A DNA stretch of 59,071 nucleotides, counting the filler, from Acidimicrobiia bacterium (lineage in GTDB: Bacteria > Actinomycetota > Acidimicrobiia > Spongiisociales > JAHEDJ01): NCBI GenBank assembly GCA_029210695.1. It is 15 parts of 15 records of this genome, joined end to end, with 100 filler letters (N's around TTAATTAATTAA, not from the genome) between each part and the next. Parts side by side here need not be neighbours in the genome. Positions count along the whole stretch, not along the records: positions 25,065 to 56,773 come from JARGFH010000045.1; 14 more parts are not named here. One strand, 5' to 3'. A program made the position numbers and the translations under genes. This document shows positions 6,925-48,970 of the stretch, in pieces (position 1 is the stretch's first letter; each line of letters begins with the position of its first letter). The notes under the pieces are model-generated. The model was not told the DNA's origin, made no database searches, and saw only the letters and a list, made by a program, of their open reading frames with translations.

Positions 6925-6937
6925 GGTCGGTCCTCTC

Positions 6938-29485: not shown

Positions 29486-31195
29486 CTACGTCTCCCTCAG
29501 GGCTTCGCGGCCAGCGTTGCGAACCAGATCACTCACGTCGGGACTGTCGACCCACTCGCGTACTAGCGCCTGAAACTCGGCTGGCTGATTCTGCGCAAGG
29601 AGCGCTATCGGTACTCCAGCAGTGATCGCTCCGTGCGCCATCCGCCTCAGCTCATCGACCACGGTGCCCGCCACACCAGCTGTCACCGCCAACCCAGAGA
29701 TCGATTCGGCAAGCGCCTTCTGGGCGTCGGGAGCCCGCTGCTGGCGAAGCGAGACCGCGAGGAAGCCAGCGATCGCCGCCTGTTTCGCGTCGTCAAGCTT
29801 GAGCGCCTCCTTCAAGCCCTGACGTCGCTTCACTGCCGATGCCTCGCCCAGGTCCGAGGCAATCGGACGCAGTTCCGCAGGAAGCGAGGCGGCCTCGATG
29901 GTCTCTCCGCGTAGAGATGCCGCGAGGAGGAGGTATTGGGACAGATCCTCGCCGGAGAGGTCAGGCGGAAGCTGGCCCCACTCGCGCACGCCCTGACTGT
30001 GGTCACCCCCGCCCTTCTCGAGTTCGGCGACCTTCTCGGCGACGGAGCCCGCTGCCAGCCAGCTCAGCATCTGGCCGAATAGCTCGGGGTAGTGCAGTTC
30101 GGCGAGCATCAGCTTGGCGAGGGCGTCGGGGTGCAACACGATGCCACGGGCCGATGCGAAGGACATCCGGAGCCAGTACGCATTCAGGAACCGTTTGAGA
30201 CGACGGGGGTTGCCAGCGCTTTGGCGATGCAACAGAGGTGTCAACTGCTGCGCAAGCACAATGTCTGCGCGTCGATCGTCGGGCATCGTATCGCCGAGTC
30301 GCTCAGTGATCCGGCCGCAGGCGGACGGCCGCGTGGCCTTGATTCGGTCGACCGCGGCGTCAACCTGATCGACGTCCGCCAGCATTAGGAGCGCCAAGTA
30401 CTCCTCTGTATGTTCCCTGCTGAGAGCGGGGACGCGCACGGGAACCTGGACGATCTTCTCCATGTACTGCCGAGCGGTGATCGGCTGCCCGGTGGTGGCG
30501 AGGCGGCGCCCGATCGCATTGGCTACGTTGTCCTCGTCGGCTGCGATCACGAAGGCCATCCGCTTGACGGATAGGAAGAGCTTGATGGCCTCCAGGGTCT
30601 CGACGACGGTATCTGGCAACGACCGGTCGAGGTCGTCCACGAGCACGACTACCCGTTCGAGTGGGGCGAGCTTCGGATCCTGCATTAGTGCTTCGAACTG
30701 CGAGCGGAACCCCTGCAACGTTGGGTCCGAGGGTTCCGCCTTGTCCTCGGCGTTTTCGTCGAACAGATCGATCAGGCTGCCGACGCCAGGAAGCGTGGCC
30801 GTCAATGCAGACGAGGCAGCCAGCTTCATGGCCTTCGCAAACTTCACTCGACGGCGCAGCTTGTGGAGCGCGTCCTTGACGGCATCAAACCGTGACTGGT
30901 TCTTCTTGAGCGCAGCCTCGAGCCCACCGAGGACCTCGTCGATTAGTCCCGTAGTGGGGTCGGTCTTGTTGTCGTACTCCCAGGGACTGACGAAGAGACA
31001 GAGCACGTCCTCGCGATCGGCGAGCCGCTTCTTGAGTAGGTGGAGAACGGTGGTCTTGCCGCCGCCCCACGGTGCGTTCACCCCGACTGTAACCGGATCG
31101 AGATCGCGGCGGCGGACGATTTCATCGACGACGTCGACGACGTCCTCGAAGCCCAGCAAGTCGACTGTGCTCGGGTTGTCGTCCCGAAGTGGCAT
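29486..31195 (-). CDS. qatA: QatA, KAP-family P-loop NTPase
   Basis: DNPSTVDLLGF, APWGGGKTT, VVLVDDLDR, LEAIKLFL, YMEKIVQVP, GNPRRLKRFLN. Confidence 0.92.
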   Translation of the reverse strand: MPLRDDNPSTVDLLGFEDVVDVVDEIVRRRDLDPVTVGVNAPWGGGKTTVLHLLKKRLADREDVLCLFVSPWEYDNKTDPTTGLIDEVLGGLEAALKKNQSRFDAVKDALHKLRRRVKFAKAMKLAASSALTATLPGVGSLIDLFDENAEDKAEPSDPTLQGFRSQFEALMQDPKLAPLERVVVLVDDLDRSLPDTVVETLEAIKLFLSVKRMAFVIAADEDNVANAIGRRLATTGQPITARQYMEKIVQVPVRVPALSREHTEEYLALLMLADVDQVDAAVDRIKATRPSACGRITERLGDTMPDDRRADIVLAQQLTPLLHRQSAGNPRRLKRFLNAYWLRMSFASARGIVLHPDALAKLMLAELHYPELFGQMLSWLAAGSVAEKVAELEKGGGDHSQGVREWGQLPPDLSGEDLSQYLLLAASLRGETIEAASLPAELRPIASDLGEASAVKRRQGLKEALKLDDAKQAAIAGFLAVSLRQQRAPDAQKALAESISGLAVTAGVAGTVVDELRRMAHGAITAGVPIALLAQNQPAEFQALVREWVDSPDVSDLVRNAGREALRET

Positions 31196-31311
31196 CGCCT
31201 GATGGGAGGTAGTCCGCGCTCCGCTCATCGGCCGGCAACACTCCCTCGAGTCGGTCGGCCCCATCTCGCAGGCCAGACATCTTGTATCGGCACGACAGCC
31301 CGGCTCATGGA

Positions 31312-31509
31312 TCAGCAATCGTCGTTTCGGCGGATCTTCTTATCAGCGCCAGCGAACTCCCCGGCGATGATCCGATCTGCCATGTTGCGCGCGTCGGCCT
31401 CGTTCTCGTAGCCCTGACTCCCGTCAGTTGCGATGACTTGCCCATTGTCGGCAGTGAGTTGCCACGCCCACCTGCAGTCCTTGCGCTGGTACAGCAGTCG
31501 AGTTGCCAT
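31312..31509 (-). CDS. DUF1508/YegP-like small protein
   Basis: WAWQLTADNGQVIATDGSQGYENEADA. Confidence 0.85.
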   Translation of the reverse strand: MATRLLYQRKDCRWAWQLTADNGQVIATDGSQGYENEADARNMADRIIAGEFAGADKKIRRNDDC

Positions 31510-32387: not shown

Positions 32388-33536
32388 GTGGCCCACATTC
32401 GACGACATCCCAACGCCCGTCATCGGTGGCAGGTCCGCTACGTCGACCCACATGGCAAGGAGCGATCGAAAAACTTCGCCCGCAAAGTCGACGCCGAGAA
32501 GTTCGTCCACACGGTGGAGGTCCAGAAGATCCGAGGCGAGTGGACCGACCCGGCCGCCGGAAAGGTCAACTTCTCCGAATGGGCCGCCCAGGTCGATGCC
32601 ACCCGCCCCAACCGACGCGAGTCGACCAGAGCACGCGACTCCTCCTACCTGAGGAACTTGATACTGCCGACCTTCGGCGATGCGGAGATCGGTGCGGTAC
32701 GACCAAACGAGATCAGAGCCTGGATCGCCGATCTGCAGGATCAAGGCTATGCCCCCGGTACGATCGCCAAGGCCTATCAGATCCTGTCACGCGCCTTCCG
32801 AGTGGCGGTCACCGACGGTCTCATCGCCCGCACCCCGTGTCGGGAGATCAAACTCCCCAAGGACGACCGCGACGAGAAACGCTTCCTGACCGTCTCTGAG
32901 ATCGAGCAACTCGCCGACGCCATCGGCCCCCGTTACCGGGTCTGGGTTCTCACCGCCGCGTACACGGGACTTCGATTCGGCGAACTCGCCGCTCTTCGCA
33001 CCGACGACCTCGACCTGCTCCGTCGCACCCTCCGCGTCGACGAGCAGCTCAGCAGGCAGGGCTCCTGGCAGATGGTGGCCGGACCACTCAAATCCAAGAA
33101 GGCCTACCGCACCATCGGCATCCCTGGCTTCCTCTGCGACGAGCTGGCGGCCCACCTCACCGATTACCCGTCGGCGTCGGACCTGGTGTTCTCCCACGCC
33201 CAAGGCGGGCCGCTTGACTACAACCGGTTCCGCCGCCGCCACTGGAACCCCGCCGTTGCCGCCTCCGTATGCACGCCTTGCACCCCACATGATCTCCGGC
33301 ACACCCACGTGGCCATGCTGATCGCCGAGAAGCAATCACCGCGATACATCGCCGACCGGCTTGGACATGAGAGCACAAGAACGGTGCTCGACGTCTACGG
33401 ACACCTTTACGAAGGCGTCGACGAGGCGGCGATGGAGGGTCTCGATCGCCTCCGATCGGAAGGCGTGGCCGACCTCGGGCGGCCGCCAGACGGGTCGAAT
33501 GTCGTGTCGATGGACACCAGATCGACGAAGCCCTAG
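32388..33536 (+). CDS. Tyrosine integrase
   Basis: YTGLRFGEL, HDLRHT, LGH..TVLDVYGH; catalytic residues intact. Confidence 0.95.
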   Translation: MAHIRRHPNARHRWQVRYVDPHGKERSKNFARKVDAEKFVHTVEVQKIRGEWTDPAAGKVNFSEWAAQVDATRPNRRESTRARDSSYLRNLILPTFGDAEIGAVRPNEIRAWIADLQDQGYAPGTIAKAYQILSRAFRVAVTDGLIARTPCREIKLPKDDRDEKRFLTVSEIEQLADAIGPRYRVWVLTAAYTGLRFGELAALRTDDLDLLRRTLRVDEQLSRQGSWQMVAGPLKSKKAYRTIGIPGFLCDELAAHLTDYPSASDLVFSHAQGGPLDYNRFRRRHWNPAVAASVCTPCTPHDLRHTHVAMLIAEKQSPRYIADRLGHESTRTVLDVYGHLYEGVDEAAMEGLDRLRSEGVADLGRPPDGSNVVSMDTRSTKP

Positions 33537-34292
33537 TCAGTTGGCCTGCTTGGCTGGGCTCCAGCGTCCTGGGCAGCCGTCGCAGTCCGACCACACGCGC
33601 TCGGCAGGTTCGCCGTTGACGAGCTGGCGGGCGTCGTCGGCGAGGACGACACCGACGAGGTGCCCTTGAGGGTCGGAAACTACCACGAGCCTGGTGCCGC
33701 GTTTGTCCATCCGCTCGAGAAGGTCGTGCAGAGACCCGTCGGGCCTGACCGTGGTCGGCCCGAGTTCCATGACGGTGTCGACAGCAACTTCGGCGTCAAC
33801 GTCCCAGGCTGACCCCCTGAGGCGCCCAATCACGATGCCGTCGCAGTCGACCACGAGCGCTTCATCCCATCCCGCCTCATTGGCTCGTCGGCGTGCGATG
33901 CCGAGTAGTTCATCTGGTTGGACGGTCGGGATATCAGGTCGGGTGGCATTGGAAATGCGGTGATCGGGCTCTTCGGTGCCCTCAACATCGAGGCCGGCGG
34001 CCTTCCAGTCGGCAATACCAGCGGTGTAGTCATAGACCTGTTCAAATCCGAGTGCTTCGAGCCGGCACGCGGCTCGTGGAGACATGTCTCACAAACCATC
34101 GTGTCAGTACACGACCACCGGTTTATCCCGACGCAACACCGACGTGGACTCAGCGTCGAGACGGCGAAGCGGAATGCTGACCGCACCGGGGATGTGTCGC
34201 GAGGTGTACTCGGCGTCGGGAAGCACATCCACGACTTGGGCCTGCTGGTTGATGAGTTCGAGTAGCCGGGCCCGGTCGATGGCGGTGACCAT
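33537..34292 (-). CDS. Rhodanese + CBS-domain protein with two in-frame UGA codons (putative Sec63 and Sec68)
   Basis: One frame from ATG 34292: VDVLP..EY..HIPGAVSIP..KPVVVY-TGA-HDGL-TGA-DMSPRAACRLEALGFEQVYDYTAGIADW, then CBS-like domains; 251 aa if read through. Confidence 0.75.
34058..34076 (-). promoter_or_regulatory. Candidate bacterial SECIS hairpin
   Basis: CGAGCCG-CGTGC-CGGCTCG: 7-bp stem with GU in the loop; 19 nt and 34 nt between the two UGAs and the loop. Confidence 0.6.
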
Positions 34293-34293: not shown

Positions 34294-34596
34294 TCAGCTC
34301 GCCGCTTCGATCGCCGCTCGGAGTTGGTCGAGGCTCGGCGACCCAGCATAGCCGTCGTCGGCCGCATATACCCGGCAGGACAGACCCACCGGGGCATCAG
34401 GGTCGGCGAACGGATCGACCCCATCGATGAGGACGGTGGGTGAGCCTCGGAACCTGTGCCGTTCGGCTGCTTCCGGTGTTTCGATCAGCTGCCGGGCGAG
34501 GATCAGATCGAATCCCTCGGATCGGAGAGTCTCGAGGTGGGCGTCGGTCTCCTTCCAGTTGGGACAACCGTTGAAGTACTGCAATGTGACTCTCAT
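34294..34596 (-). CDS. Thioredoxin-fold protein of the type found in actinobacterial mer loci
   Basis: LQYFNGCPNW...FRGSPTVLIDGVDPF...LSCRVY. Confidence 0.8.
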   Translation of the reverse strand: MRVTLQYFNGCPNWKETDAHLETLRSEGFDLILARQLIETPEAAERHRFRGSPTVLIDGVDPFADPDAPVGLSCRVYAADDGYAGSPSLDQLRAAIEAAS

Positions 34597-34606: not shown

Positions 34607-35005
34607 TCACGTTGTCTCATCGATGACATGGCACACACAGGACTGCGGCCAATGGTCAACGATCGAGTCCATGCGCTCCTGTAGGGCCTGTAGTTCAGAA
34701 CGGAGACGGGTCAATTCAGCGATCCGATCATCGACCGCCTCCACCTCGCGAGTAATCGCGTCGCGGACCGGTTGACACGGCGCCTCGCCCGACGTCCACA
34801 GCTGGACGATCTCCCGGACGTCATCGAGCGGCAACTCGAGCGCACGCAGCCGGCGCACGAACCGCATCAACTCGACGTCGCCCTGGTCGTAGTCGCGATA
34901 TCCGGCGTCGCTGCGCGCCGGTGCAGGCAGCACACCAGCGGACTCGTAGAAACGAATCGCCGACGCCTCCAGAGATGCTTGTTCTGCAGCGTGTCCAATC
35001 CTCAT
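34607..35005 (-). CDS. Heavy-metal-responsive MerR-family regulator
   Basis: MRIG..IRFYE..GYRDY; metal-binding Cys in APC and the C-terminal CVCHVI. Confidence 0.9.
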   Translation of the reverse strand: MRIGHAAEQASLEASAIRFYESAGVLPAPARSDAGYRDYDQGDVELMRFVRRLRALELPLDDVREIVQLWTSGEAPCQPVRDAITREVEAVDDRIAELTRLRSELQALQERMDSIVDHWPQSCVCHVIDETT

Positions 35006-35012: not shown

Positions 35013-35043
35013 ACCCTAAACCTTCGAGCTACTCGAAGGTCAA
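35013..35043 (-). promoter_or_regulatory. MerR-type promoter/operator
   Basis: TTGACC-19 bp-TAGGGT with the perfect palindrome ACCTTCGAG-TAG-CTCGAAGGT; ATG 7 bp after the -10. Confidence 0.85.
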
Positions 35044-35478: not shown

Positions 35479-35697
35479 TTGTCGGGGCAGTTCCGTGACC
35501 TGGGAGTCTTCTCAGAAATGCCTTCTGAACAGGGCTTTCGTGCTTTGCTCCCCTTCGTCGTTTCGCACTGTTTCGCGCCCGTCTGTGTCAGATCGGTGTC
35601 GGATTCAATCACTGGCCAGTGCATCGGTCAATGCTTCGTATCCGCCCTGGCATCTAGTCTCATCAGTGGCCGGTCAAAACGCCAGAGTGGAGCGATC

Positions 35698-37776
35698 GTG
35701 AAATCCGATACCGTCGACCTGAGGCTGCTCTTTGGGAAGGACGTGCGATACCTCGTCCCTCTCTTCCAGCGCCCATATGTCTGGAATCAAGTAGAGCACT
35801 GGGAACCCCTCTGGGCCGACGTGTTGACAATCGTCGACGCCTACCTCCGCGATCCGAAGCAAGCGGCCCCCCATTTTCTTGGCGCCGTGGTACTTGATCA
35901 TGTATCGACGCAGGTGGCCGAACTCGAAGCTCGCCAGGTCATCGACGGCCAGCAACGGCTCACCACACTGCAGATCCTGATTGCGGCTTGTCGAGATGTC
36001 GCAGACAAGGCGGGCTTCGATAAGCAGGCTCGCGTCCTGGCAAAGCTCACCGACAATGACGAGGATCTGATCGCCGAGACCCACCACATGCTGAAAGTCT
36101 GGCCGACGAACGTCGATCGATCCTCCTTCAGTGCTGTGATGGCCGGAGAAGCCAAACAGGCCGACAGACGGTCGCCGATCACGCGGGCCCATGAGTACTT
36201 CGTCAAGACCACCTCACTATGGCTCGATGAAGTTGACGACACCGAGGACGCCCTCGCTGCATTGTCGGCCGTTCTCCGGTCCTTACTCAAGATCGTCGTG
36301 ATCGATCTTGAGCACAACGACAACGCCCAGGTCATCTTCGAGACGCTCAATGCCCGCGGCACTCCCCTACGCGCGTCTGATCTGATCAAGAATCTCCTAT
36401 TCCAGCGGGCGACAGATGCCGGCGAGGACGTCGAGAAACTGTACGAGACCTACTGGCGCGAGTTCGAGGAACCCGGATGGCGAAAGGAGGTCAGACAGGG
36501 CCGGCTCAAGCGCCTCCGCTTGGATGTCTTCCTAAGCCATTACCTCACGATGGAGAAGGGCTCAGAGATCGGCGTCAGCTCTCTCTTCGAGGAGTTCCGA
36601 TCGTTCACCGCTGCATCCACCGAATCGGTCGAGCATCTCCTCATAGACCTTCGGAAGTACGGCGCCATCTATGACCTCTTCGATGAGCTGCCACCCGATG
36701 ATCCCCGTGGGCTCTTCTTCTATCGGCTCCGGACCATGCAGGCCACAACCGCTGACCCGCTGCTCCTGTACCTATTCGGATTGGACGAGGAGACCCTCCC
36801 GAAGGAGTCCCTCAACGGGATCCTCCGAAAGCTCGAGGCGTACCTCGTTCGCCGGATGGTGTCGCGACTCACTACCAAGAACTACAACGTAGTGTTCCTC
36901 GGGCTCCTTCAAGCGGTGAAAGAGGACCCGACCGACGCCGTAGGTGTCGTCGAGAGGTACCTATCAGGGCTTGAAGGCGACAGCCAGTTCTGGCCCGCTA
37001 ACAACACCTTCCGCAGGGCACTCGAGACGGGCGAGCTGTATCGGACACTGTCTCGCGCTCGACTTCGAATCGTCCTCGAGGCTCTCGAGGACGCCACAAA
37101 GAGCAAATACGCCGAGAATCTCCTCGTGCTCGACAAGCTCACCATCGAGCATCTCATGCCCCAGTCGTGGGAGGCACATTGGCCCCTACCTGCAGACAAG
37201 CATCACCTCGAGGCTGAGCAGGCCCGCGAACAGCGGATCCACAGACTTGGCAACCTCACCTTGGCGACCAAGAAGCTCAACCCCAAGCTTTCCAACGGCC
37301 CGTGGAGTACGAAGCGTTCCGACATCCTCGAACACAGTGCCCTCGCTCTGAATCGGAGCCTCCCCGATGAGTGGCATGAAGACTCGATTGACCAGCGCGG
37401 GGCTGCGCTTGCAGAGGTCGCGATCGGCATCTGGCCAGGACCCTCGGAAGACGGCACGAAGCGCGAGGTCGCTGGGGCTGCGGACGAGGCCCAAGAGGAG
37501 CCGTTCCGCACCGAGCCGATCACAGCTGACGATCTGACGGTGGGCCGCCTACGAATCCCAATCGAATCGGCCGTACTCCTGCCGGCCGACGACGACGAGG
37601 TGGACGTTGTCCTTCGAGGGACGCAAGCGTCAGCGTATTGGCAGGTTGCACTCGCAGGCGACGGTGATGGCCTCGGCTTGCTCACGCTCGACGCCAGTTT
37701 GCTCGGCCGACTTACGGAAGTGGACGATTCGCTGATCCTCACCGACTCAGAAGGTTCCGAGATCTACCTCGACTGA
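35698..37776 (+). CDS. DUF262-DUF1524 (GmrSD-like) nuclease
   Basis: FQRPYVW, IDGQQRLTT, FETLNARG, TIEHLMPQ..LGNLTL..N..LSN; GTG start at 35698. Confidence 0.9.
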   Translation: MKSDTVDLRLLFGKDVRYLVPLFQRPYVWNQVEHWEPLWADVLTIVDAYLRDPKQAAPHFLGAVVLDHVSTQVAELEARQVIDGQQRLTTLQILIAACRDVADKAGFDKQARVLAKLTDNDEDLIAETHHMLKVWPTNVDRSSFSAVMAGEAKQADRRSPITRAHEYFVKTTSLWLDEVDDTEDALAALSAVLRSLLKIVVIDLEHNDNAQVIFETLNARGTPLRASDLIKNLLFQRATDAGEDVEKLYETYWREFEEPGWRKEVRQGRLKRLRLDVFLSHYLTMEKGSEIGVSSLFEEFRSFTAASTESVEHLLIDLRKYGAIYDLFDELPPDDPRGLFFYRLRTMQATTADPLLLYLFGLDEETLPKESLNGILRKLEAYLVRRMVSRLTTKNYNVVFLGLLQAVKEDPTDAVGVVERYLSGLEGDSQFWPANNTFRRALETGELYRTLSRARLRIVLEALEDATKSKYAENLLVLDKLTIEHLMPQSWEAHWPLPADKHHLEAEQAREQRIHRLGNLTLATKKLNPKLSNGPWSTKRSDILEHSALALNRSLPDEWHEDSIDQRGAALAEVAIGIWPGPSEDGTKREVAGAADEAQEEPFRTEPITADDLTVGRLRIPIESAVLLPADDDEVDVVLRGTQASAYWQVALAGDGDGLGLLTLDASLLGRLTEVDDSLILTDSEGSEIYLD

Positions 37777-37879: not shown

Positions 37880-38116
37880 ATGGCTTCCAAGAAGCGGCTG
37901 TTGCCGACCGGCGAGTGCTGGTGCGGATGCGGAAATGAGACCGGTATCGGATCGTTCTTTAAACCCGGGCACGACAAGCTCGCTGAGTCTGCCGTCATCC
38001 TCACACAGTTCGGTGGCATCGCCGAATTCCTCGACCACTTCGGGTTCGGACCGGGAGGGAAGAACCCCTCCGAAGAGCTCGAGGCCTGGAGGGCGAGTGG
38101 CGGGCAGATACGGTGA
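37880..38116 (+). CDS. Small Cys/His protein
   Basis: 78 aa; ECWCGCG..FFKPGHD; co-oriented within the defence cluster. Confidence 0.7.
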   Translation: MASKKRLLPTGECWCGCGNETGIGSFFKPGHDKLAESAVILTQFGGIAEFLDHFGFGPGGKNPSEELEAWRASGGQIR

Positions 38117-38150
38117 TGCGCAGCCTGTGCCGACCGGGGAGGAATCGGGT

Positions 38151-39689
38151 TTGGTCAGCGTGACGCACGGATCCCCACAGCGCCGGCCAGGGCCGGTCGA
38201 CCTTTCTCGGCTGAAGTCCCACCTCTGGAACTGCGCCGACATCCTGCGGGGCAGCGCTGTCGATCGGACCGATTGGAAGGGGTACATCCTTCCGCTGTTG
38301 TTCTTCAAACGGATCTGCGACGTGTACGACGAAGAGACGGCCGAGGCGACTGAGTTGTTCGGCGATGTCGAGCCGGTCGACTTCCCGGAGGTTCACCGGT
38401 TCACTATTCCTGATGGCGCTCACTGGCGGGACGTTCGTGAAACCCCTGCCAACGTGGGTGCTGCTCTGTCTCATGCGATGCGTGAGATCGAGCTTGCCAA
38501 CCCCGACACCCTTTACCGGGTCTTCGGTACCGCCGACTGGGGCAACCGGGAGATGCTTACCGATGAGATCCTCAAAGACCTCATTGAAGCCCTGTCGGAG
38601 GTTTCGCTCGGCAATCGGGCGGTTGGTTCCGACATCCTGGGCGACGCCTATGAGTACCTGATCGGGAAGTTCGCCGATATCACCAAACGTAAGAAGGCTG
38701 GTGAGTTCTACACGCCCCGAAGCGTCGTGCGGATGATGGTTGACCTGCTCGACCCTAGGGAGGGCGAGAGCGTCTACGACCCCGCCTGCGGTACAGGAGG
38801 CATGTTGTTGGGCGCCATCGAGCATGTAGAGCGCGCCGGCGGCGACCCGCGCACATTCTTCGGGAAGATCTTCGGACAGGAGAAAAACCTCACAACCTCG
38901 TCCATTGCTCGCATGAACCTCGTGCTTCACGGCATCGAGGACTTCCAGATCGTCCGTGAAGACACGCTGCGGAATCCGGCCTTCACCGATTCGGCCACCG
39001 GCGGGCTCGCCACGTTCGACTGCGTCATCGCCAATCCACCGTTCTCGCTCAAGGAGTGGGGTATTGAGATCTGGGAGTCTGACCCGTGGGGCCGAGCGGT
39101 GTTCGGACTTCCACCCAAGAGCTACGGCGACTTTGCCTGGGTGCAACACATGACCGCGTCGATGGCCGACGGCACCGGGCGCATGGCCGTCGTTCTCCCT
39201 CAGGGGGCACTGTTCAGGAAGGGTGCGGAAGGCAAGATCCGCAAGGCCATGCTTCAAGAGGACCTGATCGAAGCAGTGATCGGTCTGGCCCCAAACATCT
39301 TCTATGGCACCGGCCTCGCTCCCGCCATCCTGACCCTCCGCCGCACCAAGCCGGCCGACCGCAAGGGCAAGGTCTTGATGGTCGATGCGTCGAGCCTCTT
39401 CCGAAAGGGCCGGGCGCAGAACTTCCTCGACTCCGAGCACGCCGACCGAATCGTCAAATGGGTGCAAGCCTTCGAAGACGTCGAGGACCGGGCCAAGGTC
39501 GTCGACCTCAAAGAGATCGCGAAGGAGGACTGGACGCTCAATATCTCGCGCTATGTGCTGCCGCCGATCGGCGAAGACATCCCGCCACTACCCGAAGCGG
39601 TCGCCGCGTTCAAAGAAGCTCTTACGGAAGCCCGCGCCGCCGAAGACCGGCTCCGCGAGATACTCATCGGGGGAGGATGGCTCCAATGA
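38151..39689 (+). CDS. hsdM: Type I RM methyltransferase 1 (NPPF)
   Basis: LWNCADILRG, GEFYTP, YDPACGTGG, IANPPF; TTG start after GGAGGA (GTG at 38160 is an alternative). Confidence 0.93.
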   Translation: MVSVTHGSPQRRPGPVDLSRLKSHLWNCADILRGSAVDRTDWKGYILPLLFFKRICDVYDEETAEATELFGDVEPVDFPEVHRFTIPDGAHWRDVRETPANVGAALSHAMREIELANPDTLYRVFGTADWGNREMLTDEILKDLIEALSEVSLGNRAVGSDILGDAYEYLIGKFADITKRKKAGEFYTPRSVVRMMVDLLDPREGESVYDPACGTGGMLLGAIEHVERAGGDPRTFFGKIFGQEKNLTTSSIARMNLVLHGIEDFQIVREDTLRNPAFTDSATGGLATFDCVIANPPFSLKEWGIEIWESDPWGRAVFGLPPKSYGDFAWVQHMTASMADGTGRMAVVLPQGALFRKGAEGKIRKAMLQEDLIEAVIGLAPNIFYGTGLAPAILTLRRTKPADRKGKVLMVDASSLFRKGRAQNFLDSEHADRIVKWVQAFEDVEDRAKVVDLKEIAKEDWTLNISRYVLPPIGEDIPPLPEAVAAFKEALTEARAAEDRLREILIGGGWLQ

Positions 39690-41203
39690 GCAAAGCACCC
39701 GAACACCTCAGCCAACAAGAGCTTGAGTCCTACCTGTGGGGTGCCGCCAACCTGCTACGCGGCCTTATCGACGCCGGCGACTACAAGCAGTACGTCTTCC
39801 CGCTGCTCTTCTTCAAGCGCCTCTCTGACGTCTGGGACGCGGAGTACCACAACGCCCTCGCTGAGACCGGCGATGAGGTCTACGCCCGCTCCACTGCCGA
39901 CGACCGCTTCAACATCCCCGACGGTGCCCACTGGTCCGATGTCCGCAACGCGTCACGCGACGTGGGGCGGGCGCTGCTGAATGCTTTCCGGGCCATCGAA
40001 GCCGCCAATCCCGAGCGTCTAGCCAGCGTCTTTGGTAATGCTTCGTGGACCGACAAGGCACAGATGCCCGATGAGACGCTCAAGAACCTGATTGAGCATC
40101 TCTCCCGACACCCCCTGAGTCTTGCCGCGGTTCCCGAAGACGAACTCGGGAACGCCTACGAGTACCTCATCAAGCAGTTCGCCGACGACAGCGGACACAC
40201 CGCCCAGGAGTTCTACACCAACCGCACTCTCGTCCACCTGATGACCCAGATGCTCGAACCGCAAGCCGGCGAGCGTATCTACGACCCCACCGTCGGAACC
40301 GGCGGCATGCTCATCTCGGCCCTCGCCGAAGTGAAGCGGCGCGGTGATGACGCCCGCACACTCGGCCTCTACGGCCAAGAGCTGATCCACACCACGGCCT
40401 CGATTGCCCGCATGAACCTCGTTCTCCATGGCGTCGAGGATTTCCGCATCGCCACCGGCAACACACTCAGCGAACCCGCCTTCATCGAACGCGACCGGTT
40501 GATGACCTTCAACGTGGTCCTCGCCAACCCGCCATATTCGATCAAGAAGTGGAACCGCGAGGCGTGGCAGACCGACCCTTGGGGCCGAAACTTCCTCGGC
40601 GCTCCACCCCAAGGCCGCGCGGATTATGCCTTCTTTCAGCACATCCTCAGAAGCCTTGATCCCGAGACCGGCCGCTGCGCCGTCCTCTTCCCCCACGGCG
40701 TGCTCTTCCGCAACGAAGAAGCCGCAATGCGCCACAAACTGATCGAACTGGACCTTCTCGAATGCGTCCTTGGCCTCGGACCCAACCTCTTCTACAACTC
40801 GCCCATGGAAGCCTGCGTGGTCGTCTGCCGCACGCAGAAGCCGCCTGAACGGCAGGGTCGCATCCTGTTCATCGATGCCGTGCACGAGGTCGCCCGCGAT
40901 CGCGCCCAGAGCTTTCTCAAGCCCGAACACCAGGAACGGATCCTCAAGGCCTACCAAGCATTCGACGACCAGCCCGGCTTCGCCGCGGTAGCCACCATCG
41001 ACGAGGTCCTAGCCAAGGACGGCAACCTCTCAATCCCCCGCTACGTGCGGCCCGTCGTCGAGGCATCCGGAAGCAATCCCCACGGCGACGTCAAGACCCT
41101 GTGGTCCGGGCTAGAAGCGAGCGGCCGCGAGTTCTGGCAGCAGATGGACGCGGTCGTGGACATGCTCGACGGCATGCTCACTGCGGAGGCCAACCATGGT
41201 TGA
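39686..41203 (+). CDS. hsdM: Type I RM methyltransferase 2 (NPPY)
   Basis: LWGAANLLRG, QEFYTN, YDPTVGTGG, LANPPY; ATGA overlap with M1. Confidence 0.93.
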   Translation: MSKAPEHLSQQELESYLWGAANLLRGLIDAGDYKQYVFPLLFFKRLSDVWDAEYHNALAETGDEVYARSTADDRFNIPDGAHWSDVRNASRDVGRALLNAFRAIEAANPERLASVFGNASWTDKAQMPDETLKNLIEHLSRHPLSLAAVPEDELGNAYEYLIKQFADDSGHTAQEFYTNRTLVHLMTQMLEPQAGERIYDPTVGTGGMLISALAEVKRRGDDARTLGLYGQELIHTTASIARMNLVLHGVEDFRIATGNTLSEPAFIERDRLMTFNVVLANPPYSIKKWNREAWQTDPWGRNFLGAPPQGRADYAFFQHILRSLDPETGRCAVLFPHGVLFRNEEAAMRHKLIELDLLECVLGLGPNLFYNSPMEACVVVCRTQKPPERQGRILFIDAVHEVARDRAQSFLKPEHQERILKAYQAFDDQPGFAAVATIDEVLAKDGNLSIPRYVRPVVEASGSNPHGDVKTLWSGLEASGREFWQQMDAVVDMLDGMLTAEANHG

Positions 41204-42383
41204 GCCAGCGACAAAGCGGCGCTGGACGCGGGTCGCGTTTGGCGACGTCGTGCGAAAGGTCTCGGACCGCGTCGATCCTGAGACATCCGGCCTGGAGCGC
41301 TATGTGGCCGGCGAGCACATGGACACTGACAACCTGCGGATTAGCCGCTGGGGAACGACCGGCGACGGTTACCTCGGTCCAGCATTCCACATGCGCTTCA
41401 AGCCTGGCCAGGTGCTGTACGGCTCGCGTCGTACCTACCTTCGAAAGGTTGCTGTGGCCGACTTCGCGGGGATAACGGCGAACACCACGTTTGTGCTCGA
41501 GCCCGAGGATCCGAACGTCCTACTTCCAGAGCTTCTACCGTTCATCATGCAGACGGAGTCGTTCCACGACCACTCAATCAAACAGTCGAAGGGCTCAGTT
41601 AACCCATACATCAACTACTCGGACCTCGCATGGTACGAGTTCGCCCTGCCGCCTGTTGAAGAGCAGCGCCGAATCGCGGAGGGCATCGCTGCACTAGGCA
41701 CCACCGTCGAGACTCTCAAGGCGGTTGTCGATTCGTCCACGAGGGTAGCGCTTGCTGTCGTGGATGACAGTCTGCGAGCGACGGATGCCGTGGAAATGCG
41801 CGTCGATCAAGCGTTCGAAGTGCAGATCGGTCGACAACGCGCGCCCAAGTATGCAACTGGGACTCAAGCCTGTCGTTATCTCAGGGCAGCGAACATCAAG
41901 GACGGACGTCTGCTGCTTGATGACGTACTGGAGATGGACTTCACCGCTGACGAGAGAAGGACGTTCCGTCTGACAACGGGCGACGTTCTGATTACCGAAG
42001 GTTGTGGTAGTCCTGAAGAGTTGGGAGCCACGGCACGGTGGAGTGGCGAGCTGTCGGACGACGTTTGCTTCCAGAACACGCTGCTGAGACTTCGGCCGAG
42101 GAAGGGCGTAACGACAGCAGGATTCGCATACGCCTGGGCACGTCATGCATACAAGTCGGGGAAATTCCTGCGGGTCGCTCGCGGTTCGAACATCCTGCAC
42201 ATCGGTAGTAAGCGGCTCTCTGCGATGCCCATGAAGGTTCCACAACTGCGAGCCCAGGATGATCTCGAAGAGATGTTGGTTCGCGTCGAAATCGCCTCCA
42301 GCAACGCCAGTCAGCGGCGGAGCGCTTTGGAATCAGCACGGCGCCGCATACTCAACGAAAACTTAGGTGAGAGCAGTGAGTAA
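41196..42383 (+). CDS. hsdS: Type I RM specificity subunit
   Basis: Two TRD-sized regions with LPPVEEQRRI and VPQLRAQ conserved segments; sits between hsdM and hsdR. Confidence 0.9.
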   Translation: MVEPATKRRWTRVAFGDVVRKVSDRVDPETSGLERYVAGEHMDTDNLRISRWGTTGDGYLGPAFHMRFKPGQVLYGSRRTYLRKVAVADFAGITANTTFVLEPEDPNVLLPELLPFIMQTESFHDHSIKQSKGSVNPYINYSDLAWYEFALPPVEEQRRIAEGIAALGTTVETLKAVVDSSTRVALAVVDDSLRATDAVEMRVDQAFEVQIGRQRAPKYATGTQACRYLRAANIKDGRLLLDDVLEMDFTADERRTFRLTTGDVLITEGCGSPEELGATARWSGELSDDVCFQNTLLRLRPRKGVTTAGFAYAWARHAYKSGKFLRVARGSNILHIGSKRLSAMPMKVPQLRAQDDLEEMLVRVEIASSNASQRRSALESARRRILNENLGESSE

Positions 42384-45345
42384 TTTCAGCGAAGCCAACA
42401 CCGTGGAAGCATTCATCCGTGACCTGCTTTGCGGTGGCGTCACCCACCACACCGCTGTCGGTCCGGGCCTCGCCCATCGGCTCGGCCAGGTCTCAGGAGC
42501 CGGCTGGCACTACCTCTCGCCGCATGACTTGCCGCGCCAGCCCACCGAGATCCTCGTTGAGGGTCATCTCAGGGAGGCGCTGATTCGACTTAATCCCGAG
42601 GTCGCAGCAGAGCTAGACCGTGCCGACGATGTGCTCTACAAGTTGCGCGCCATCCTTATGGGGGTTCGCAGCGATGGGCTGGTCAAGGCCAACGAGGAGT
42701 TCGCAGCTTGGCTAACCGGCGAGCGGTCGATGCCTTTCGGCAAGAACGGCGAGCACGTCACCATTCGCCTCATCGACTTCGACGACCTCGAACAGAACCA
42801 GTACGTGGTCACCACCCAGTACACGGTGCGTGCCGGCGGAGCAGAGAAGCGCGCCGATCTTGTTCTGCTAGTGAACGGCATCCCGCTAGTCGTGATCGAG
42901 GCCAAGACGCCGGTGCGTTCGAGCGAGAGCTGGTTCGATGGAGCGATTCAGGTGCATGACGACTATGAGCGCAACGTGCCCGAGCTGTTCGTACCAAACG
43001 TGTTCTCGGTTGCGACTGAGGGCAAGGAGTTCCGTTACGGATCGATCGGACTGCCAGTCGATCTCTGGGGTCCATGGAGGATCGACGCCGACACCCGAGC
43101 GCCAAGTCTTCAGCAGATCGAACAGGCCGTATCCTCGCAGCTCGGTCCGCATGTCGTGCTCGACCTTCTCGCCAACTTCACGGCGTATGCGACGGACAGC
43201 AAGAAGCGCCGCATCAAGATCATCGCCCGCTATCAACAGTATGAGGGCGCCAACCTGATCGTCGAACGAGTCGTGGCGGGACAACCGAAGAAGGGCCTCA
43301 TCTGGCATTTCCAGGGCTCGGGCAAGTCGCTGTTGATGCTCTTCGCCGCCCGCAAGCTGCGCCTGCACCCGGCTCTGAAGAATCCCACGGTGATGATCGT
43401 GGTCGACCGGATCGACCTCGACACACAGATCTCGAGCACCTTCTATGCCGCCGACACCCCGAACCTGGTGAAAGCCGAGACCCGCGCCGAACTGCAACGG
43501 CTACTCGAACAGGACGTCCGCAAGATCATCATCACGACGATCTTCAAGTTCGGTGAAGCCGACGGAGTGGTGAACGACCGCAGCAATATCATCGCTCTGG
43601 TCGACGAGGCTCACCGCACGCAGGAGGGCGACCTCGGCCGCAAGATGCGTCAGGCGTTGCCCAACGCCTTCCTTTTCGGCCTCACCGGCACGCCCATCAA
43701 CCGCGCAGACCGCAACACCTTCTACGCCTTCGGGGCCGAGGGCGACGAGCACGGATACATGAGCCGCTACGGGTTCGAGGAGTCGATCCGAGACGGGGCC
43801 ACCATGCCCCTCCACTTCGAGCCACGGCTGGTGGAGCTCCACATCGACAAAGACGCCATCGACGAAGCGTTCAAGGAGCTCACTGGTGGCCTGAGCGACC
43901 TCGACCGCGAGCAGCTCGCCAGGACCGCCGCACAGATGGCGGTACTCGTGAAGGCGCCCGACCGGGTGCAGAGGATCTGTGCCGATATCGCCAAGCACTA
44001 CCAGGACAAAGTCGAGCCGAACGGCTTCGGCGCCCAGGTCGTGACCTTTGATCGCGAAGCGTGCATGCTTTACAAGAGAGCCCTAGACGAGTATCTACCG
44101 TCCGAGGTCTCCGACGTCGTCATGACCGTGAACAGCGGCGAAGACGACTATGCGCCGTGGCGTCGGGGTCGTGACGACGAGGAGAAGCTACTCGACCGCT
44201 TCCGCGACCCAGCAGACCCGCTGAAGATACTCATCGTCACCTCGAAGCTCCTCACCGGCTTCGACGCCCCGATCCTGCACGCCATGTACCTCGACAAGCC
44301 ACTTCGCGACCACACTCTGCTACAGGCGATCTGCCGAACCAACCGACCCCATGGGAAGGCCAAGACCCACGGGCTTATCGTCGACTACCTCGGCGTCTTC
44401 GACGACGTCGCCCAGGCGATCCAGTTCGACGAGGAAGGCATCACCCGGGTCGTCACCAATATCAACGAACTGGTCGCACAATTGCCTGGGGCCATCACGA
44501 GGTGTCTCTACCGCTTCGCCGGCGTTGATCGCATGGTTGCGGGTTACGAAGGTCTTATTGCTGCCCAAGATTGCCTTCCCGACAACGAGACCCGCGACAG
44601 ATTCGCGGAGGACTTCAGCTACCTGAGCCGGCTATGGGAGGCCATCTCGCCCGACCCGATCCTGGGCAGCTATGAGACCGACTACCGGTGGCTGACCCAG
44701 GTCTACGAGTCGGTGAAACCCTCCACCGGCACCGGCAAGCTGCTCTGGCACGCACTTGGTCCCAAGACGATCGAGCTCATCCACGAGCACTTGCAGGTCG
44801 ATGCGGTGCGCGACGACCTCGACACCCTGGTATTGGACGCCGATCTCCTGGAAGCTGTGCTCGGGACGCCAGACCCGAATAGGAAAGCCAAGGAGATCGA
44901 GATCAAAGTCGCACGTCGGCTCCGCAAGCATCTGCATGATCCGCGTTTCAAGGAACTCGGCCAACGGCTCGAAGACCTGAAGCTGAAACACGAACAGGGA
45001 GTCCTGTTGAGTGTTGAGTTCCTGAAGGAGTTGCTCAACCTGGCCCGCGACGTCGTACAAGCTGAACGAACCGCCGAACCGATCGCCGAGGAGGACCTGG
45101 GTAAGGCGGCCCTGACCGAACTGTTCGAAGAAGCGAAGAACGAGAAGACCCCAATCATGGTCGAGCGGGTCGTCAACGACATAGACGAGATCGTTCGGGT
45201 CGTCCGGTTCGACGGATGGCAAAACACCCACGCCGGCGAACGCCAGGTCAAGCTGGCGCTCCGCAAGACCCTGTTCAAGTACAAGCTCCACCAGGACCAG
45301 GAGTTGTTTGACCGCGCCTACGGCTACATCAGGCAGTATTACTGA
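42376..45345 (+). CDS. hsdR: Type I RM restriction subunit
   Basis: RADLVLLVNGIPLVVIEAK, HFQGSGKS, DEAHR, TGTP, LLTGFDAP, QAICRTNR. Confidence 0.95.
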   Translation: MSNFSEANTVEAFIRDLLCGGVTHHTAVGPGLAHRLGQVSGAGWHYLSPHDLPRQPTEILVEGHLREALIRLNPEVAAELDRADDVLYKLRAILMGVRSDGLVKANEEFAAWLTGERSMPFGKNGEHVTIRLIDFDDLEQNQYVVTTQYTVRAGGAEKRADLVLLVNGIPLVVIEAKTPVRSSESWFDGAIQVHDDYERNVPELFVPNVFSVATEGKEFRYGSIGLPVDLWGPWRIDADTRAPSLQQIEQAVSSQLGPHVVLDLLANFTAYATDSKKRRIKIIARYQQYEGANLIVERVVAGQPKKGLIWHFQGSGKSLLMLFAARKLRLHPALKNPTVMIVVDRIDLDTQISSTFYAADTPNLVKAETRAELQRLLEQDVRKIIITTIFKFGEADGVVNDRSNIIALVDEAHRTQEGDLGRKMRQALPNAFLFGLTGTPINRADRNTFYAFGAEGDEHGYMSRYGFEESIRDGATMPLHFEPRLVELHIDKDAIDEAFKELTGGLSDLDREQLARTAAQMAVLVKAPDRVQRICADIAKHYQDKVEPNGFGAQVVTFDREACMLYKRALDEYLPSEVSDVVMTVNSGEDDYAPWRRGRDDEEKLLDRFRDPADPLKILIVTSKLLTGFDAPILHAMYLDKPLRDHTLLQAICRTNRPHGKAKTHGLIVDYLGVFDDVAQAIQFDEEGITRVVTNINELVAQLPGAITRCLYRFAGVDRMVAGYEGLIAAQDCLPDNETRDRFAEDFSYLSRLWEAISPDPILGSYETDYRWLTQVYESVKPSTGTGKLLWHALGPKTIELIHEHLQVDAVRDDLDTLVLDADLLEAVLGTPDPNRKAKEIEIKVARRLRKHLHDPRFKELGQRLEDLKLKHEQGVLLSVEFLKELLNLARDVVQAERTAEPIAEEDLGKAALTELFEEAKNEKTPIMVERVVNDIDEIVRVVRFDGWQNTHAGERQVKLALRKTLFKYKLHQDQELFDRAYGYIRQYY

Positions 45346-47033: not shown

Positions 47034-47810
47034 CTACCGCAGCAGTCGCCCGATTCGTTGCTCGGCATAGGGATGCGAACGGCCACGCCTGAATGGGGTG
47101 GCACCGTCGAGGGGCCGTTCGTACACGTCGAGATACTCGATCAGCTCGAAGGCATAGCCGAGCTTCTTGGCGTACCGGTCGGCGCTGAGCTCGCCGTGGC
47201 GGAGGTAGGCCGCCCAGAGTGACCGCATGATCGGCAACTCCCACGAGCCGCCGCCCGAGAAGATCCGCACAATCCGTGCGGCGATGAACTGGCCCTCCAT
47301 CTCCAGGTACACGCGAAGTGCTCTCAAACCCAGGAATTCGAGGCGGACCAGTGCGAGGAGTATGTCACCGGTGAGGGTGGCGATGTGACCGCACTCGTGG
47401 GCCAGGGCAGCCTCCATTGACGGATGGCCGATCATCCCGCTGTGAACGTAGATGGTCCGTCCAAGCGTCTGTGCGTTTGGCACGGGGTCGTCGATCACGA
47501 ACCATGCCATTGGAGTCGTGGCGCCTCGCTTCTTCAGGCCCTCCAGCACCGGCTTGACGATCGCTTTCTCCCGAGGGCTCGGCCTCCGGGCACCCAGCTC
47601 CCAGTACAGCCCCCAGCCACCTGGCACGCCTACGAGGAACGTCGCCCACGACAGCGCCAGGGGCAACAGCCCTGCCGTGGTTGCCACGGCAAGTGCGATC
47701 TCCTCCGGCGCACCAAGAGCGCGGGCAATCCCGTATCCGGCGAGACCGCGGGCGAGCACGTTGAGCTGCTCCAGCATGAGGCAGAGAAAGAAGAGCGGCG
47801 CTGCGATCAT
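47034..47810 (-). CDS. M48/HtpX-like membrane Zn peptidase
   Basis: PNAQTLG, AALAHECGH, ELSADRYA, SHP...RI; N-terminal TM segments. Confidence 0.85.
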   Translation of the reverse strand: MIAAPLFFLCLMLEQLNVLARGLAGYGIARALGAPEEIALAVATTAGLLPLALSWATFLVGVPGGWGLYWELGARRPSPREKAIVKPVLEGLKKRGATTPMAWFVIDDPVPNAQTLGRTIYVHSGMIGHPSMEAALAHECGHIATLTGDILLALVRLEFLGLRALRVYLEMEGQFIAARIVRIFSGGGSWELPIMRSLWAAYLRHGELSADRYAKKLGYAFELIEYLDVYERPLDGATPFRRGRSHPYAEQRIGRLLR

Positions 47811-48970
47811 CGTGTCCTCCTCGCCTCGATTGTCGAGATCTCTCTATCCAATCGCAGAGGTGTGACAGAAACGCGAGCCGCCCGGCCTTGGGAGATGACG
47901 AAACACTCCCCTACCTCGAGCTGACGAACCTTGTCCGGGTGCACTCGGAAGGCGTCCTGCTGGCGAAGGCTACCCAGCCCCGTAGGTCCACCCTCGGTCG
48001 AAACCTGGATGGTGCGCTCGATGCTCGGCCGCGTACCGGCTCGCCCCGCCAGACGCTCCGGATCGGCGCTCTGGTGACAGATGAGCCCCGCCGCGGCGTC
48101 GAGGATCCGGTCTGCACCTGCGCCCAGCCCGGCGTAGGACTGGCTCGACACAATCACCGCCGCCCCAAGGCTCCGCACCCGCTCGAACAGGTTTGCGGCG
48201 TCGGCGTCCATCGACAGCGCCGAGAACTCGTCCACGATCAGCAGCACCCGGCGGTCGATCGGCTTGCGTCGGGCGACGTAGTGGGCGAAGTCCTCAACCA
48301 GGAACCGGCCCAGACCGGCGGCCTCCTCCTTGAGGGCGAGTCCGTCAAGCAGCACGTAGGCAGCATCGGCGTCTTCGAACGCCCACCTCCCGTCGAGCTT
48401 CCCTTCGAGCACCTCGAAGAACCCCCGATACCGTGCCACAGCGCCCTGCGCCTCCTTGCCTTGGCCCCGTGCCTGCAGTCGGTCGATCAGATCAACAGCC
48501 GAGCGAGGTGGGCCGATCGGGTGTTTCACCGCTTCGGCCAGCAAGAGCTTGGTGACTGCGCGGTAGTAGGGCTCAGAGAAGTCCTCGACCGCCATCAGTC
48601 GGTTGAGCAGGGCAAGGGGTTCGCCCCGCCAGCCGTCGTACGGCTCGTCCGGGAACACCTTCAGCCGTTGCACGCCGGCCTGCCCCATTGCCCCAACGAA
48701 TCGGTGAACGTTCGACGGGTCTCCCTTGGCGTCGATGTAGAGGATCTGCCAACCGAGATTTGCCGCCGCACCGTAGGCGAGGCGCAGCAGTGTCTCGGTC
48801 TTGCCGGAGCCGGTTCCACCCACGACGACGAGGTGTCGGCCGAGCACCGTCGCCGGATAGAAGACCGTCCCGTTGTGGATCCAGTCGATGAGGTCGCCGC
48901 CTTGCGCCTCGCCAAGCAGAATCGACGCCGGCGCCGCCCTCGCTGTGCTCCTCGGTCGCAGCAACCTCAT
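47807..48970 (-). CDS. VirD4/TraD/TrwB-like coupling ATPase
   Basis: HLVVVGGTGSGKT, IDAKGD, LLIVDEFS, RSLG..V..SQS, VHPDKVRQLEVGE. Confidence 0.82.
   Translation of the reverse strand: MRLLRPRSTARAAPASILLGEAQGGDLIDWIHNGTVFYPATVLGRHLVVVGGTGSGKTETLLRLAYGAAANLGWQILYIDAKGDPSNVHRFVGAMGQAGVQRLKVFPDEPYDGWRGEPLALLNRLMAVEDFSEPYYRAVTKLLLAEAVKHPIGPPRSAVDLIDRLQARGQGKEAQGAVARYRGFFEVLEGKLDGRWAFEDADAAYVLLDGLALKEEAAGLGRFLVEDFAHYVARRKPIDRRVLLIVDEFSALSMDADAANLFERVRSLGAAVIVSSQSYAGLGAGADRILDAAAGLICHQSADPERLAGRAGTRPSIERTIQVSTEGGPTGLGSLRQQDAFRVHPDKVRQLEVGECFVISQGRAARVSVTPLRLDREISTIEARRTR

Follow-up and report, generated by a model that had tools for sequence, protein, structure and literature searches.

In this work we have analysed a gene on the minus strand at positions 33537..34292 of a 59,071-nucleotide stretch of Acidimicrobiia bacterium DNA (assembly GCA_029210695.1; the whole of this stretch is called the window below). 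The gene encodes a protein with a rhodanese domain and a pair of CBS domains, and its reading frame contains two TGA codons which, judging from the comparison with related genes, very probably both encode selenocysteine (Sec) in a real gene that has remained unannotated. The reading that we favour, and to which we would give a probability of roughly 0.8, is that of a 251-residue selenoprotein in which both UGAs are decoded as Sec through a single selenocysteine insertion sequence (SECIS) inside the open reading frame (ORF), and whose gene belongs to a MerR-controlled operon on a mobile island and may serve a soft-metal or redox function. The conservation of the TGAs, their pairing with Cys in homologues, the constraint on the hairpin behind them, the operon and its promoter are all evident from the sequences that we compared.

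The reading frame and the encoded protein

The gene is a single minus-strand frame of 251 codons which runs from an ATG at 34292-34290 to a TGA stop at 33539-33537, and the reading frame itself, the Pfam matches, the structural model and the coding periodicity all speak for it. It is interrupted only by the TGAs of codon 63 (34104..34106, minus strand) and codon 68 (34089..34091, minus strand), which give PVVVY-U-HDGL-U-DMSPRAAC, and it contains no further stops and no frameshifts. The sequence-only reading, from which this study started, had taken the two listed ORFs for one frame split by nothing but these two TGAs, and our in-frame reading agrees with it. Codon 63 occupies the canonical position of the catalytic Cys of rhodaneses and codon 68 the sixth position of the active-site loop; we propose Sec at both on the basis of the TGA or Cys found there in homologues, codon 68 being the conserved one of the two.

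Residues 9-99 match the Pfam rhodanese family (PF00581) with 63 bits against a cut-off of 22.2, so that this part belongs to the rhodaneses. Pfam reports one CBS match (PF00571, residues 173-223, 42.9 bits against a cut-off of 24), and residues roughly 115-225 superpose in Foldseek on the solved CBS pairs 3k2v, 2ef7 and 5ks7, so that we regard this region as a CBS pair. The AlphaFold model, built from an 87-sequence alignment (predicted local distance difference test score 93.4, predicted template-modelling (TM) score 0.78), comprises the rhodanese domain, the CBS pair and a C-terminal beta-hairpin, with the active-site loop directly after the strand formed by residues 59-62. Its N-terminal domain superposes on the rhodanese BH2092 (3nhv) with an E-value of 1e-10, 33% identity and a root-mean-square deviation of 1.5 A. 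No solved structure found by Foldseek joins a rhodanese domain to a CBS pair: each half was matched separately, and the query-normalised TM-score did not exceed 0.44. At the C-terminus the protein carries a C237-x-x-C240 knuckle (33573..33584, minus strand) within the motif W-x-D-C-D-G-C-P-G-R-W, which the alignment and the model strands 232-237 and 240-246 place in the beta-hairpin. C237, C240, P241, G242 and W244 are invariant in the protein alignment (A1), and the whole CxxC tail is missing from orthologues of the Micromonospora type.

TGA and Cys at codons 63 and 68 in homologues

When the read-through product was compared with 5.8 billion proteins, 707 relatives were returned, the best 120 of which were examined, and a second search seeded with a Micromonospora orthologue returned 1213 relatives and added many full-length forms. 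For comparison at the DNA level we assembled 80 related loci from public genomes (numbered L001 onwards) and read their codons in frame; a pattern match in L049 (frame 0) proved to be a chance hit and was discarded. The frame is kept in all 80 loci. Codons 63 and 68 are TGA/TGA in 49 of them (UU forms), Cys/TGA in 30 (CU forms) and Cys/Cys in one (L037, the CC form). This gives 49 loci with TGA and 31 with TGC or TGT at codon 63, and 79 with TGA plus the TGT of L037 at codon 68. Full-length proteins from the databases (n=110) read C-x4-C in 106 cases and C-x4-W in four: position 63 is Cys in every one of them, position 68 is Cys in 106 and W in four. At the sixth position of the loop, Arg, Ser or Thr is common among rhodaneses. 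The sequence-only reading had asked whether homologues hold Cys or TGA at these two positions, and apart from the four W68 proteins, to which we return below, they do. The UGAs thus align with Cys in some homologues and with UGA in orthologues elsewhere, the frame being kept on both sides, as is the case for selenoproteins.

The titles of the loci name Acidimicrobiia, three species of Micromonospora, Solirubrobacterales/Thermoleophilaceae (Thermoleophilia), Gaiellaceae and Chloroflexota. A few loci from metagenome-assembled genomes (MAGs) are labelled Acidobacteria or Proteobacteria, which may be due to binning or transfer.

Could the gene be a pseudogene, or the product of sequencing errors, with two nonsense mutations and a separate CBS protein that starts at M70? 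Existing annotation looks this way. Gene callers, GenBank and RefSeq give truncated proteins of 149-196 aa for the Micromonospora and MAG orthologues, under the names 'CBS domain-containing protein' or 'hypothetical protein'. Likewise, 117 of the best 120 matches are pieces of 177-196 aa which cover 69-73% of the query, and the pieces inspected all start at M70 (MSPRAAC...), the first Met past codon 68; the remaining three are of full length and read VVVYCHDGLCDMSPRAAC. However, TGA at codon 68 recurs in 79 of 80 assemblies that are independent of one another and represent several classes and two phyla, and the gene is free of other stops and frameshifts. The 62 codons upstream of the TGAs have kept the frame and are subject to purifying selection: for codons 3-62 the entropy at the three codon positions is 0.89/0.71/1.49, for codons 106-230 it is 1.01/0.85/1.64, and identity, measured against the window protein, has a median of 59% upstream of the TGAs and 58% downstream. 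By these measures the upstream segment is evolving as coding sequence. The pseudogene explanation is already contradicted by such comparative data and seems to us scarcely credible. That two independent nonsense mutations were improbable had been argued from the window alone, and the recurrence of the same TGAs in an intact frame bears this out.

A conserved hairpin behind the two UGA codons

Downstream of the UGAs, at 34058..34076 on the minus strand, lies a SECIS-like hairpin with a 7-bp stem (CGAGCCG/CGGCUCG) and the loop CGUGC, which encodes R73-A-A-C-R-L78; its 5' arm spans 34076-34070, the loop 34069-34065 and the 3' arm 34064-34058. The stem begins 12 nt past UGA68 and 27 nt past UGA63, and the loop begins 19 and 34 nt past them. 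The sequence-only reading had described this hairpin at 19 and 34 nt from the two UGAs; it is indeed there, and these figures are the distances from UGA to loop. When folded in isolation, the hairpin has a minimum free energy (MFE) of -12.1 kcal/mol and a z-score of -3.0, and only one of 200 shuffled sequences was as stable. An 84-nt stretch of the window folded alone has a z-score of -0.85 and a different MFE structure, and we set the window-only fold aside. Since the single-sequence fold of this stretch is unexceptional, the case for the hairpin rests on the comparative data.

In 81 codon-aligned sequences the region reads as a near-invariant DNA word, TGA GAC ATG NNN CCN CGR GCC GCG TGY CGG CTC, and the RNAalifold consensus returns the same 7-bp hairpin, with the family loop CGUGY. 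Of the 539 cells in 77 distinct sequences, 538 (99.8%) are paired; shifting the partner by one to three columns lowers the figure to 14-45%. Where pairs vary, 15 sequences change A-U to G-U and one changes G-C to G-U, and L054 breaks the closing pair. Two sequences, L040 and L051, carry a compensatory change from C-G to U-A which costs an Arg-to-Gln replacement in the protein, and the two are separated on the tree by lineages that keep C-G.

We consider the synonymous constraint to be the stronger argument for the hairpin, ahead of covariation. Codon entropy for R73, A74, A75, C76, R77 and L78 is 0.71, 0.17, 0, 0.88, 0 and 0.10 bits, as against mostly 1.5-2.4 bits for conserved four- and sixfold degenerate codons elsewhere in the gene, and the 0.88 bits of C76 reflect its free third base, which is the last base of the loop. 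Residue 76, whose codon forms the U-G-Y of the loop, is Cys in all 129 Sec-type pieces; in the 110 full-length forms it is Ala in 40, Thr in 37, Cys in 21 and another residue in 12. Such a pattern is as expected if the codon is held by the RNA and not by the protein. Taken together, the synonymous entropy, the compensatory changes and residue 76 point to an RNA structure that is conserved beyond the need of the protein.

We also compared the hairpin by hand with the bacterial SECIS (bSECIS) model of Zhang and Gladyshev as it is summarised in the available text of a recent review (PMC13188914). According to this summary, the loop has 3-9 nt and the stem 4-16 bp, G occupies loop position 1 or 2 and is followed by G or U, the loop lies 16-37 nt from the UGA, and the MFE is -7.5 kcal/mol or lower. 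With its loop of 5 nt (C-G-U), stem of 7 bp, distances of 19 and 34 nt and MFE of -12.1 kcal/mol, the hairpin satisfies every clause for both UGAs. This comparison favours the sequence-only reading, which had proposed a bacterial SECIS search: the hairpin is conserved and fits the model for either codon.

Two further pairings were considered and rejected. A longer lower stem, joining S71/P72 with G82, appeared by eye to be paired inconsistently across the alignment, and a 3-bp helix near codons 64-67 is weak and is broken at one pair in 12 of 81 sequences.

One hairpin for two codons

The two UGAs are separated by 12 nt only, so no hairpin of its own for UGA63 fits between them. Nor did RNAalifold, run over codons 56-100 separately for the UU (47 sequences) and CU (28 sequences) groups, find a second conserved structure in either; only the 7-bp hairpin is kept, and hairpin and spacing are alike in all state groups. 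On a maximum-likelihood tree of 79 proteins, from which two cut rows were left out and the two trait columns (63 and 68) dropped, the state at these positions changes at least seven times, with 4-5 of the changes forced by well-supported branches. One Acidimicrobiia clade, with 55-80% protein identity, holds 46 UU and four CU forms, and most of the family outside it is C-x4-U. A Chloroflexota pair is UU within a CU background, and the CC form L037 is nested among CU forms. The simplest reading of this tree is that U68 would be the constant Sec of the family and that several switches between Cys and Sec have taken place at position 63 over an unchanged hairpin. From this we infer single TGC-to-TGA changes at codon 63 that would be decoded by the same hairpin.

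How might one element serve both codons? We envisage a complex of SelB·GTP·Sec-tRNA(Sec) on the CGUGY hairpin which would supply Sec at UGA63 and again at UGA68. The second delivery would require SelB to rebind within five codons or the complex to stay tethered. It may be, alternatively, that only UGA68 is directed by the SECIS and that UGA63 is poorly decoded, or is handled by near-cognate read-through or a second signal, in which case UU genes would yield mostly products that are truncated or contain something other than Sec at position 63. The distance from UGA to stem, near-ideal at 12 nt for UGA68 versus 27 nt for UGA63, would suit this explanation, as would the near-universal U68 next to a position 63 which flips between Cys and TGA. 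Yet TGA63 is present in 49 of 80 loci and throughout the 50-sequence clade with its 46 UU forms, which one would not expect of a stop that is leaky or harmful. Where position 63 is not TGA it is Cys without exception (31 of 31 loci, 110 of 110 full-length proteins), the 34 nt to the loop lie within the bSECIS range of 16-37 nt as given in PMC13188914, and the UU group has no extra conserved structure. We therefore hold SECIS-directed decoding of UGA68 alone to be unlikely, and prefer Sec at both codons through the one hairpin. In this the comparative evidence sides with the sequence-only reading, which had proposed that both UGAs encode Sec and may share one SECIS: the Cys or TGA of the homologues, the constrained hairpin and its fit to the bSECIS model all favour it.

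Points against the proposed decoding

Several observations nevertheless weigh against the reading of the gene as a selenoprotein with two Sec residues. By the spacing rule of E. coli fdhF, the gap of 27 nt between UGA63 and the stem is long. Covariation analysis, which the sequence-only reading had put forward as a check, did yield the two compensatory changes but is thin, since three of the seven pairs never vary and double changes occur at only one pair, in two sequences. The RAA(C)RL peptide is largely kept in Cys forms too, so that its conservation is in part a matter of the protein, and the Cys/Cys locus L037 retains a perfect hairpin. Rfam gave no SECIS or other match over 33950-34200 at E-values up to 10. 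No selA, selB, selD or tRNA-Sec gene was found in the window or the loci, which amount to about 1.03 Mb in total. ARAGORN found no tRNA-Sec in the window or the 80 loci, and Pfam annotation of 58 window ORFs revealed no sel gene. Motif scans for SelA, SelB and SelD, over ORFs and in six frames, retrieved two EF-Tu genes only, and a miss by these motifs weighs little. The window also holds no MerA or MerB gene, and the proposed metal function thus leans on the neighbours found in relatives. Finally, there are the four W68 proteins (P0139, P0145, P0169 and P0198), which are Joint Genome Institute (JGI) gene calls from contigs of 901-1091 nt.

Do these four mean that TGA is read as Trp, or as some other standard residue, through a local or genome-wide reassignment of the code? 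All four W forms keep AACRL, the peptide encoded by the SECIS, unlike most C-x4-C forms, of which only 17 of 106 have Cys76, and we take their W68 probably to be a TGA which was translated in a gene call of the code-4 type, that is, by the gene caller and not by the cell. In the carriers themselves TGA is an ordinary stop, as it is the commonest terminator of the orthologues and also ends the DF gene of the window, described below: of 81 orthologues 47 end in TGA, 25 in TAG and 7 in TAA, and two are cut by contig ends, which means that TGA terminates 47 of the 79 complete ones at normal length. The counterpart of TGA in full-length forms is Cys, moreover, at position 68 in 106 of 110 and at position 63 in all. 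Reassignment is in our view very improbable.

As to Sec decoding in related bacteria, selA, selB, selC and selD are present in all 84 complete genomes of Actinomarina, a group within the class Acidimicrobiia, according to the available part of 10.64898/2026.04.03.716425, and selC is reported from 42% of 244 mycobacterial genomes in the available part of 10.64898/2026.03.03.709296. Together with a second TGA/Cys gene which occurs in relatives, these reports give indirect support for Sec decoding in the lineages concerned, though not in the host of the window itself.

The operon, its promoter and the neighbouring genes

The rhodanese-CBS gene is the third and last gene of a tight operon in which it follows merR and a gene of the DF family. 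The latter (34294..34596, minus strand) encodes a homologue of the DF-family (seleno)protein in its Cys form (FNGCPNW) and scores 67.2 bits with NCBIfam NF049942, the cut-off being 70. It ends in TGA, and the ATG of the rhodanese-CBS gene starts 1 nt after this stop. The first gene (34607..35005, minus strand) codes for a MerR-family metal-responsive regulator with Pfam matches to MerR_1 and MerR-DNA-bind; its NCBIfam matches, to CadR-PbrR, CueR and MerR, are all below cut-off. Its likely start is the ATG at 35005, the ORF list beginning 20 codons too early with a GTG at 35065.

Upstream of merR we read by eye a MerR-type promoter (35013..35043, minus strand), made up of TTGACC, a 19-nt spacer with the dyad ACCTTCGAG-N3-CTCGAAGGT, and TAGGGT. 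An over-long spacer of 19-20 nt which holds a dyad operator is what would be expected of a promoter activated by a MerR protein. TAGGGT lies 7 nt before the merR ATG, which suggests that the transcript is leaderless or nearly so, and 15 other loci have a related motif ahead of the operon. A promoter and terminator scan found nothing here with a tool that allows spacers of 16-18 nt only.

Neighbours were counted by tblastn within 4 kb in 81 loci. A DF gene is near 48 of them, almost always directly upstream and on the same strand, MerR near 38, a MerB-like lyase near 30 and ArsR near 28. The MerB-like neighbour matches Pfam MerB with 75.6 bits (cut-off 27). MerA is found near four loci, after seven matches at distance 0 on the opposite strand (L009, L012, L021, L008, L013, L033 and L044) had been excluded as an antisense ORF clustered with MerA. 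At least one of DF, MerR, MerB-like, ArsR and MerA accompanies 63 of the 81 loci, or 66 before the removal of these artefacts, upon which L009, L012 and L021 drop out.

The surroundings of the operon are those of a mobile element, and the entire window resembles an island of the integrative or conjugative type. A tyrosine recombinase/integrase gene (32388..33536, plus strand; Pfam Phage_integrase) is convergent with the rhodanese-CBS gene and abuts it, and a second tyrosine integrase lies at 50483-51838. There are also a TrwC relaxase (4-2674), a T4 coupling-protein-like gene (47810-49255), TadE/Tad pilus genes (13369-14198) and transposase genes of the IS110, IS21 and rve types. Type I restriction-modification genes (37935-45342), GmrSD (35479-37773), a KAP NTPase (29489-31318) and a second MerR-family gene (6538-7182) are further inhabitants of the window, and a tRNA-Val (56395-56469) lies near one end. 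Among the restriction-modification genes there are two long plus-strand ORFs, 39086-41200 and 37935-39686, each with a match to N6_Mtase/HsdM, which share about 600 nt read in different frames; they may stem from a duplication or a frameshift of hsdM, or from the greedy picking of ORFs.

A second gene with an in-frame TGA in related loci

A scan of the neighbour genes in related loci for positions that alternate between stop and Cys gave mostly noise, with one exception. This gene encodes a DsbD_TM/CcdA-like membrane protein, about 278 aa long, and has a conserved in-frame TGA in all 12 loci that carry it (L007, L010, L011, L015, L020, L032, L033, L046, L056, L057, L058 and L060); in L058, for example, it occupies 4091-4927 with the TGA at 4658-4660. 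The TGA stands at the position of the second transmembrane Cys (...GYLLAGFG-U-TGPLLAGLA...). Just 3' of it an invariant GCC GGT CTG GC would form a small hairpin with a CGCC/GGCG stem and the loop GGUCU. Among the best 120 database matches, 109 stop immediately ahead of the TGA, and Cys takes its place in at least six full-length forms. The protein has no Pfam or NCBIfam match, and the word 'CcdA' is absent from the available text of the 2026 review PMC13188914. It has the appearance of another candidate selenoprotein family within these operons.

Another small ORF attracted our attention upstream of the Thermoleophilaceae orthologue and on the same strand (L076, about 9860-10040). It is rich in Cys (...CPVCGH...CQRFYQCEGC...GDCCVFCSY...) and seems to encode a further metal-binding mini-protein from cassettes of this type.

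Possible function and significance

What could be the role of such a protein? The loop with U or C at position 63 and U at 68 would hold a selenol/thiol or diselenol pair that may be redox-active or may chelate soft metals. A selenol(ate) pair of this kind could be a metal ligand or the redox centre of a protein which handles soft metals of the mercury or organomercury type, or of a redox protein, and the loop might accept Hg(II). Mercury or organomercurial handling is suggested by the control by MerR or ArsR and by the MerB-like neighbours. From this genomic setting, we regard a role of some kind in metal detoxification as an even bet. A fuller picture can be drawn only tentatively and is more doubtful than probable: in Actinomycetota, a mobile selenoprotein family under a MerR switch, whose diselenol (U-x4-U) or selenol/thiol (C-x4-U) loop would capture or transform Hg(II) or the products of organomercurials, together with DF and MerB-like partners and, in some loci, the DsbD-like selenoprotein, and in which one SECIS would insert both Secs.

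Members of the rhodanese-CBS family abound in environmental Actinomycetota and occur in cultured Micromonospora as well; among the closest relatives, the majority have been mis-called as truncated CBS proteins. The near-invariant DNA word across the hairpin could be used in annotation to flag the family. If our reading is true, the family would be an instance from nature of one bacterial SECIS that recodes UGAs in tandem, and it would offer a natural system for studying the reach of such elements, with one hairpin, UGAs at two distances, and Cys/Sec switches as built-in controls. It would also link Sec to mobile metal-detoxification cassettes of the MerR/MerB type, which raises the question of how a moving gene stays compatible with the SelB of its recipient.

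Comparison with known systems

No NCBIfam model claims the window protein, and we did not find a rhodanese-CBS selenoprotein in the main texts of the literature searched, although a mention in Haft and Tolstoy (2025) is possible. The terms 'CBS' and 'Actinomycet' do not occur in the available text of PMC13188914. The family is thus apparently uncatalogued. The texts consulted on bacterial SECIS elements contain no statement that one of them serves two UGAs, and no rhodanese-CBS component of mer operons was found in the literature searched.

Our hairpin resembles the bacterial SECIS consensus in being a stem-loop within the ORF, 3' of the UGA, with a small loop in which G is followed by U and with spacing and energy inside the limits; it differs from known bacterial SECIS elements in that two UGAs, at a spacing of 15 nt, apparently share the one hairpin, and in its CGUGY loop. 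The locus likewise shares with mer loci the MerR-type promoter, with its 19-nt spacer and dyad, and the MerB-like and MerA neighbours that are seen in relatives. It is not itself a mer operon, as the window has only a MerR-family regulator, below every subfamily cut-off, and lacks MerA and MerB. The C-terminal half of the protein is reminiscent of TA0289 (PDB 1pvm/2qh1), in which a CBS pair is followed by a small Cys-rich metal knuckle, TA0289 having a rubredoxin-like site of four Cys versus the one CxxC of the rhodanese-CBS protein.

Rhodanese-like selenoproteins are not new. The review of May 2026 (PMC13188914, available text) lists five forms, and single-Sec forms 1-4 include UxxS, UxxG and CxU, the last known as 'LYCAU' (NF041203). 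With these our protein shares the rhodanese fold and a Sec in or beside the catalytic loop, and in UU forms Sec would replace the catalytic Cys; the invariant Sec of the family, though, is at loop position 6, unlike the catalytic-Cys position. It does not belong to LYCAU, which it matches with 27 bits against a cut-off of 115, and its motif is U/C-x4-U and not C-x-U.

The closest parallel is form 5, TsoB, which has the motif UxxxxU and two Secs (PMC13188914, citing Haft and Tolstoy 2025). Because TsoB is listed there, the U-x4-U motif and rhodaneses with two Secs must be counted as already known. The sequence-only reading had called bacterial proteins with two Secs rare, and this holds in so far as they are rarer than those with one, but they are not unheard of. 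TsoB (NF045694) and the window protein have in common a rhodanese domain and a U-x4-U active-site loop, here U63-HDGL-U68, and window residues 15-116 align with profile positions 59-169, the rhodanese part only, with an E-value of 6e-9. TsoB is a fusion of rhodanese and DsbD, and some of our related loci have a separate DsbD_TM-like membrane protein with a TGA/Cys pair of its own. The window protein falls outside TsoB itself, with 34.5 bits against a cut-off of 805, a length of 251 aa and no DsbD membrane domain; in place of that domain it has the CBS pair and the C-terminal CxxC. The rhodanese-CBS family differs from TsoB also in its hosts, Actinomycetota and Chloroflexota, and in its neighbours, MerR or ArsR, DF and MerB-like genes. 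What is apparently new, as far as the sequences tell, is therefore the rhodanese-CBS architecture, the constant Sec at loop position 6, the switching between Cys and Sec at position 63, the probable sharing of one SECIS and the context of a mobile metal regulon.

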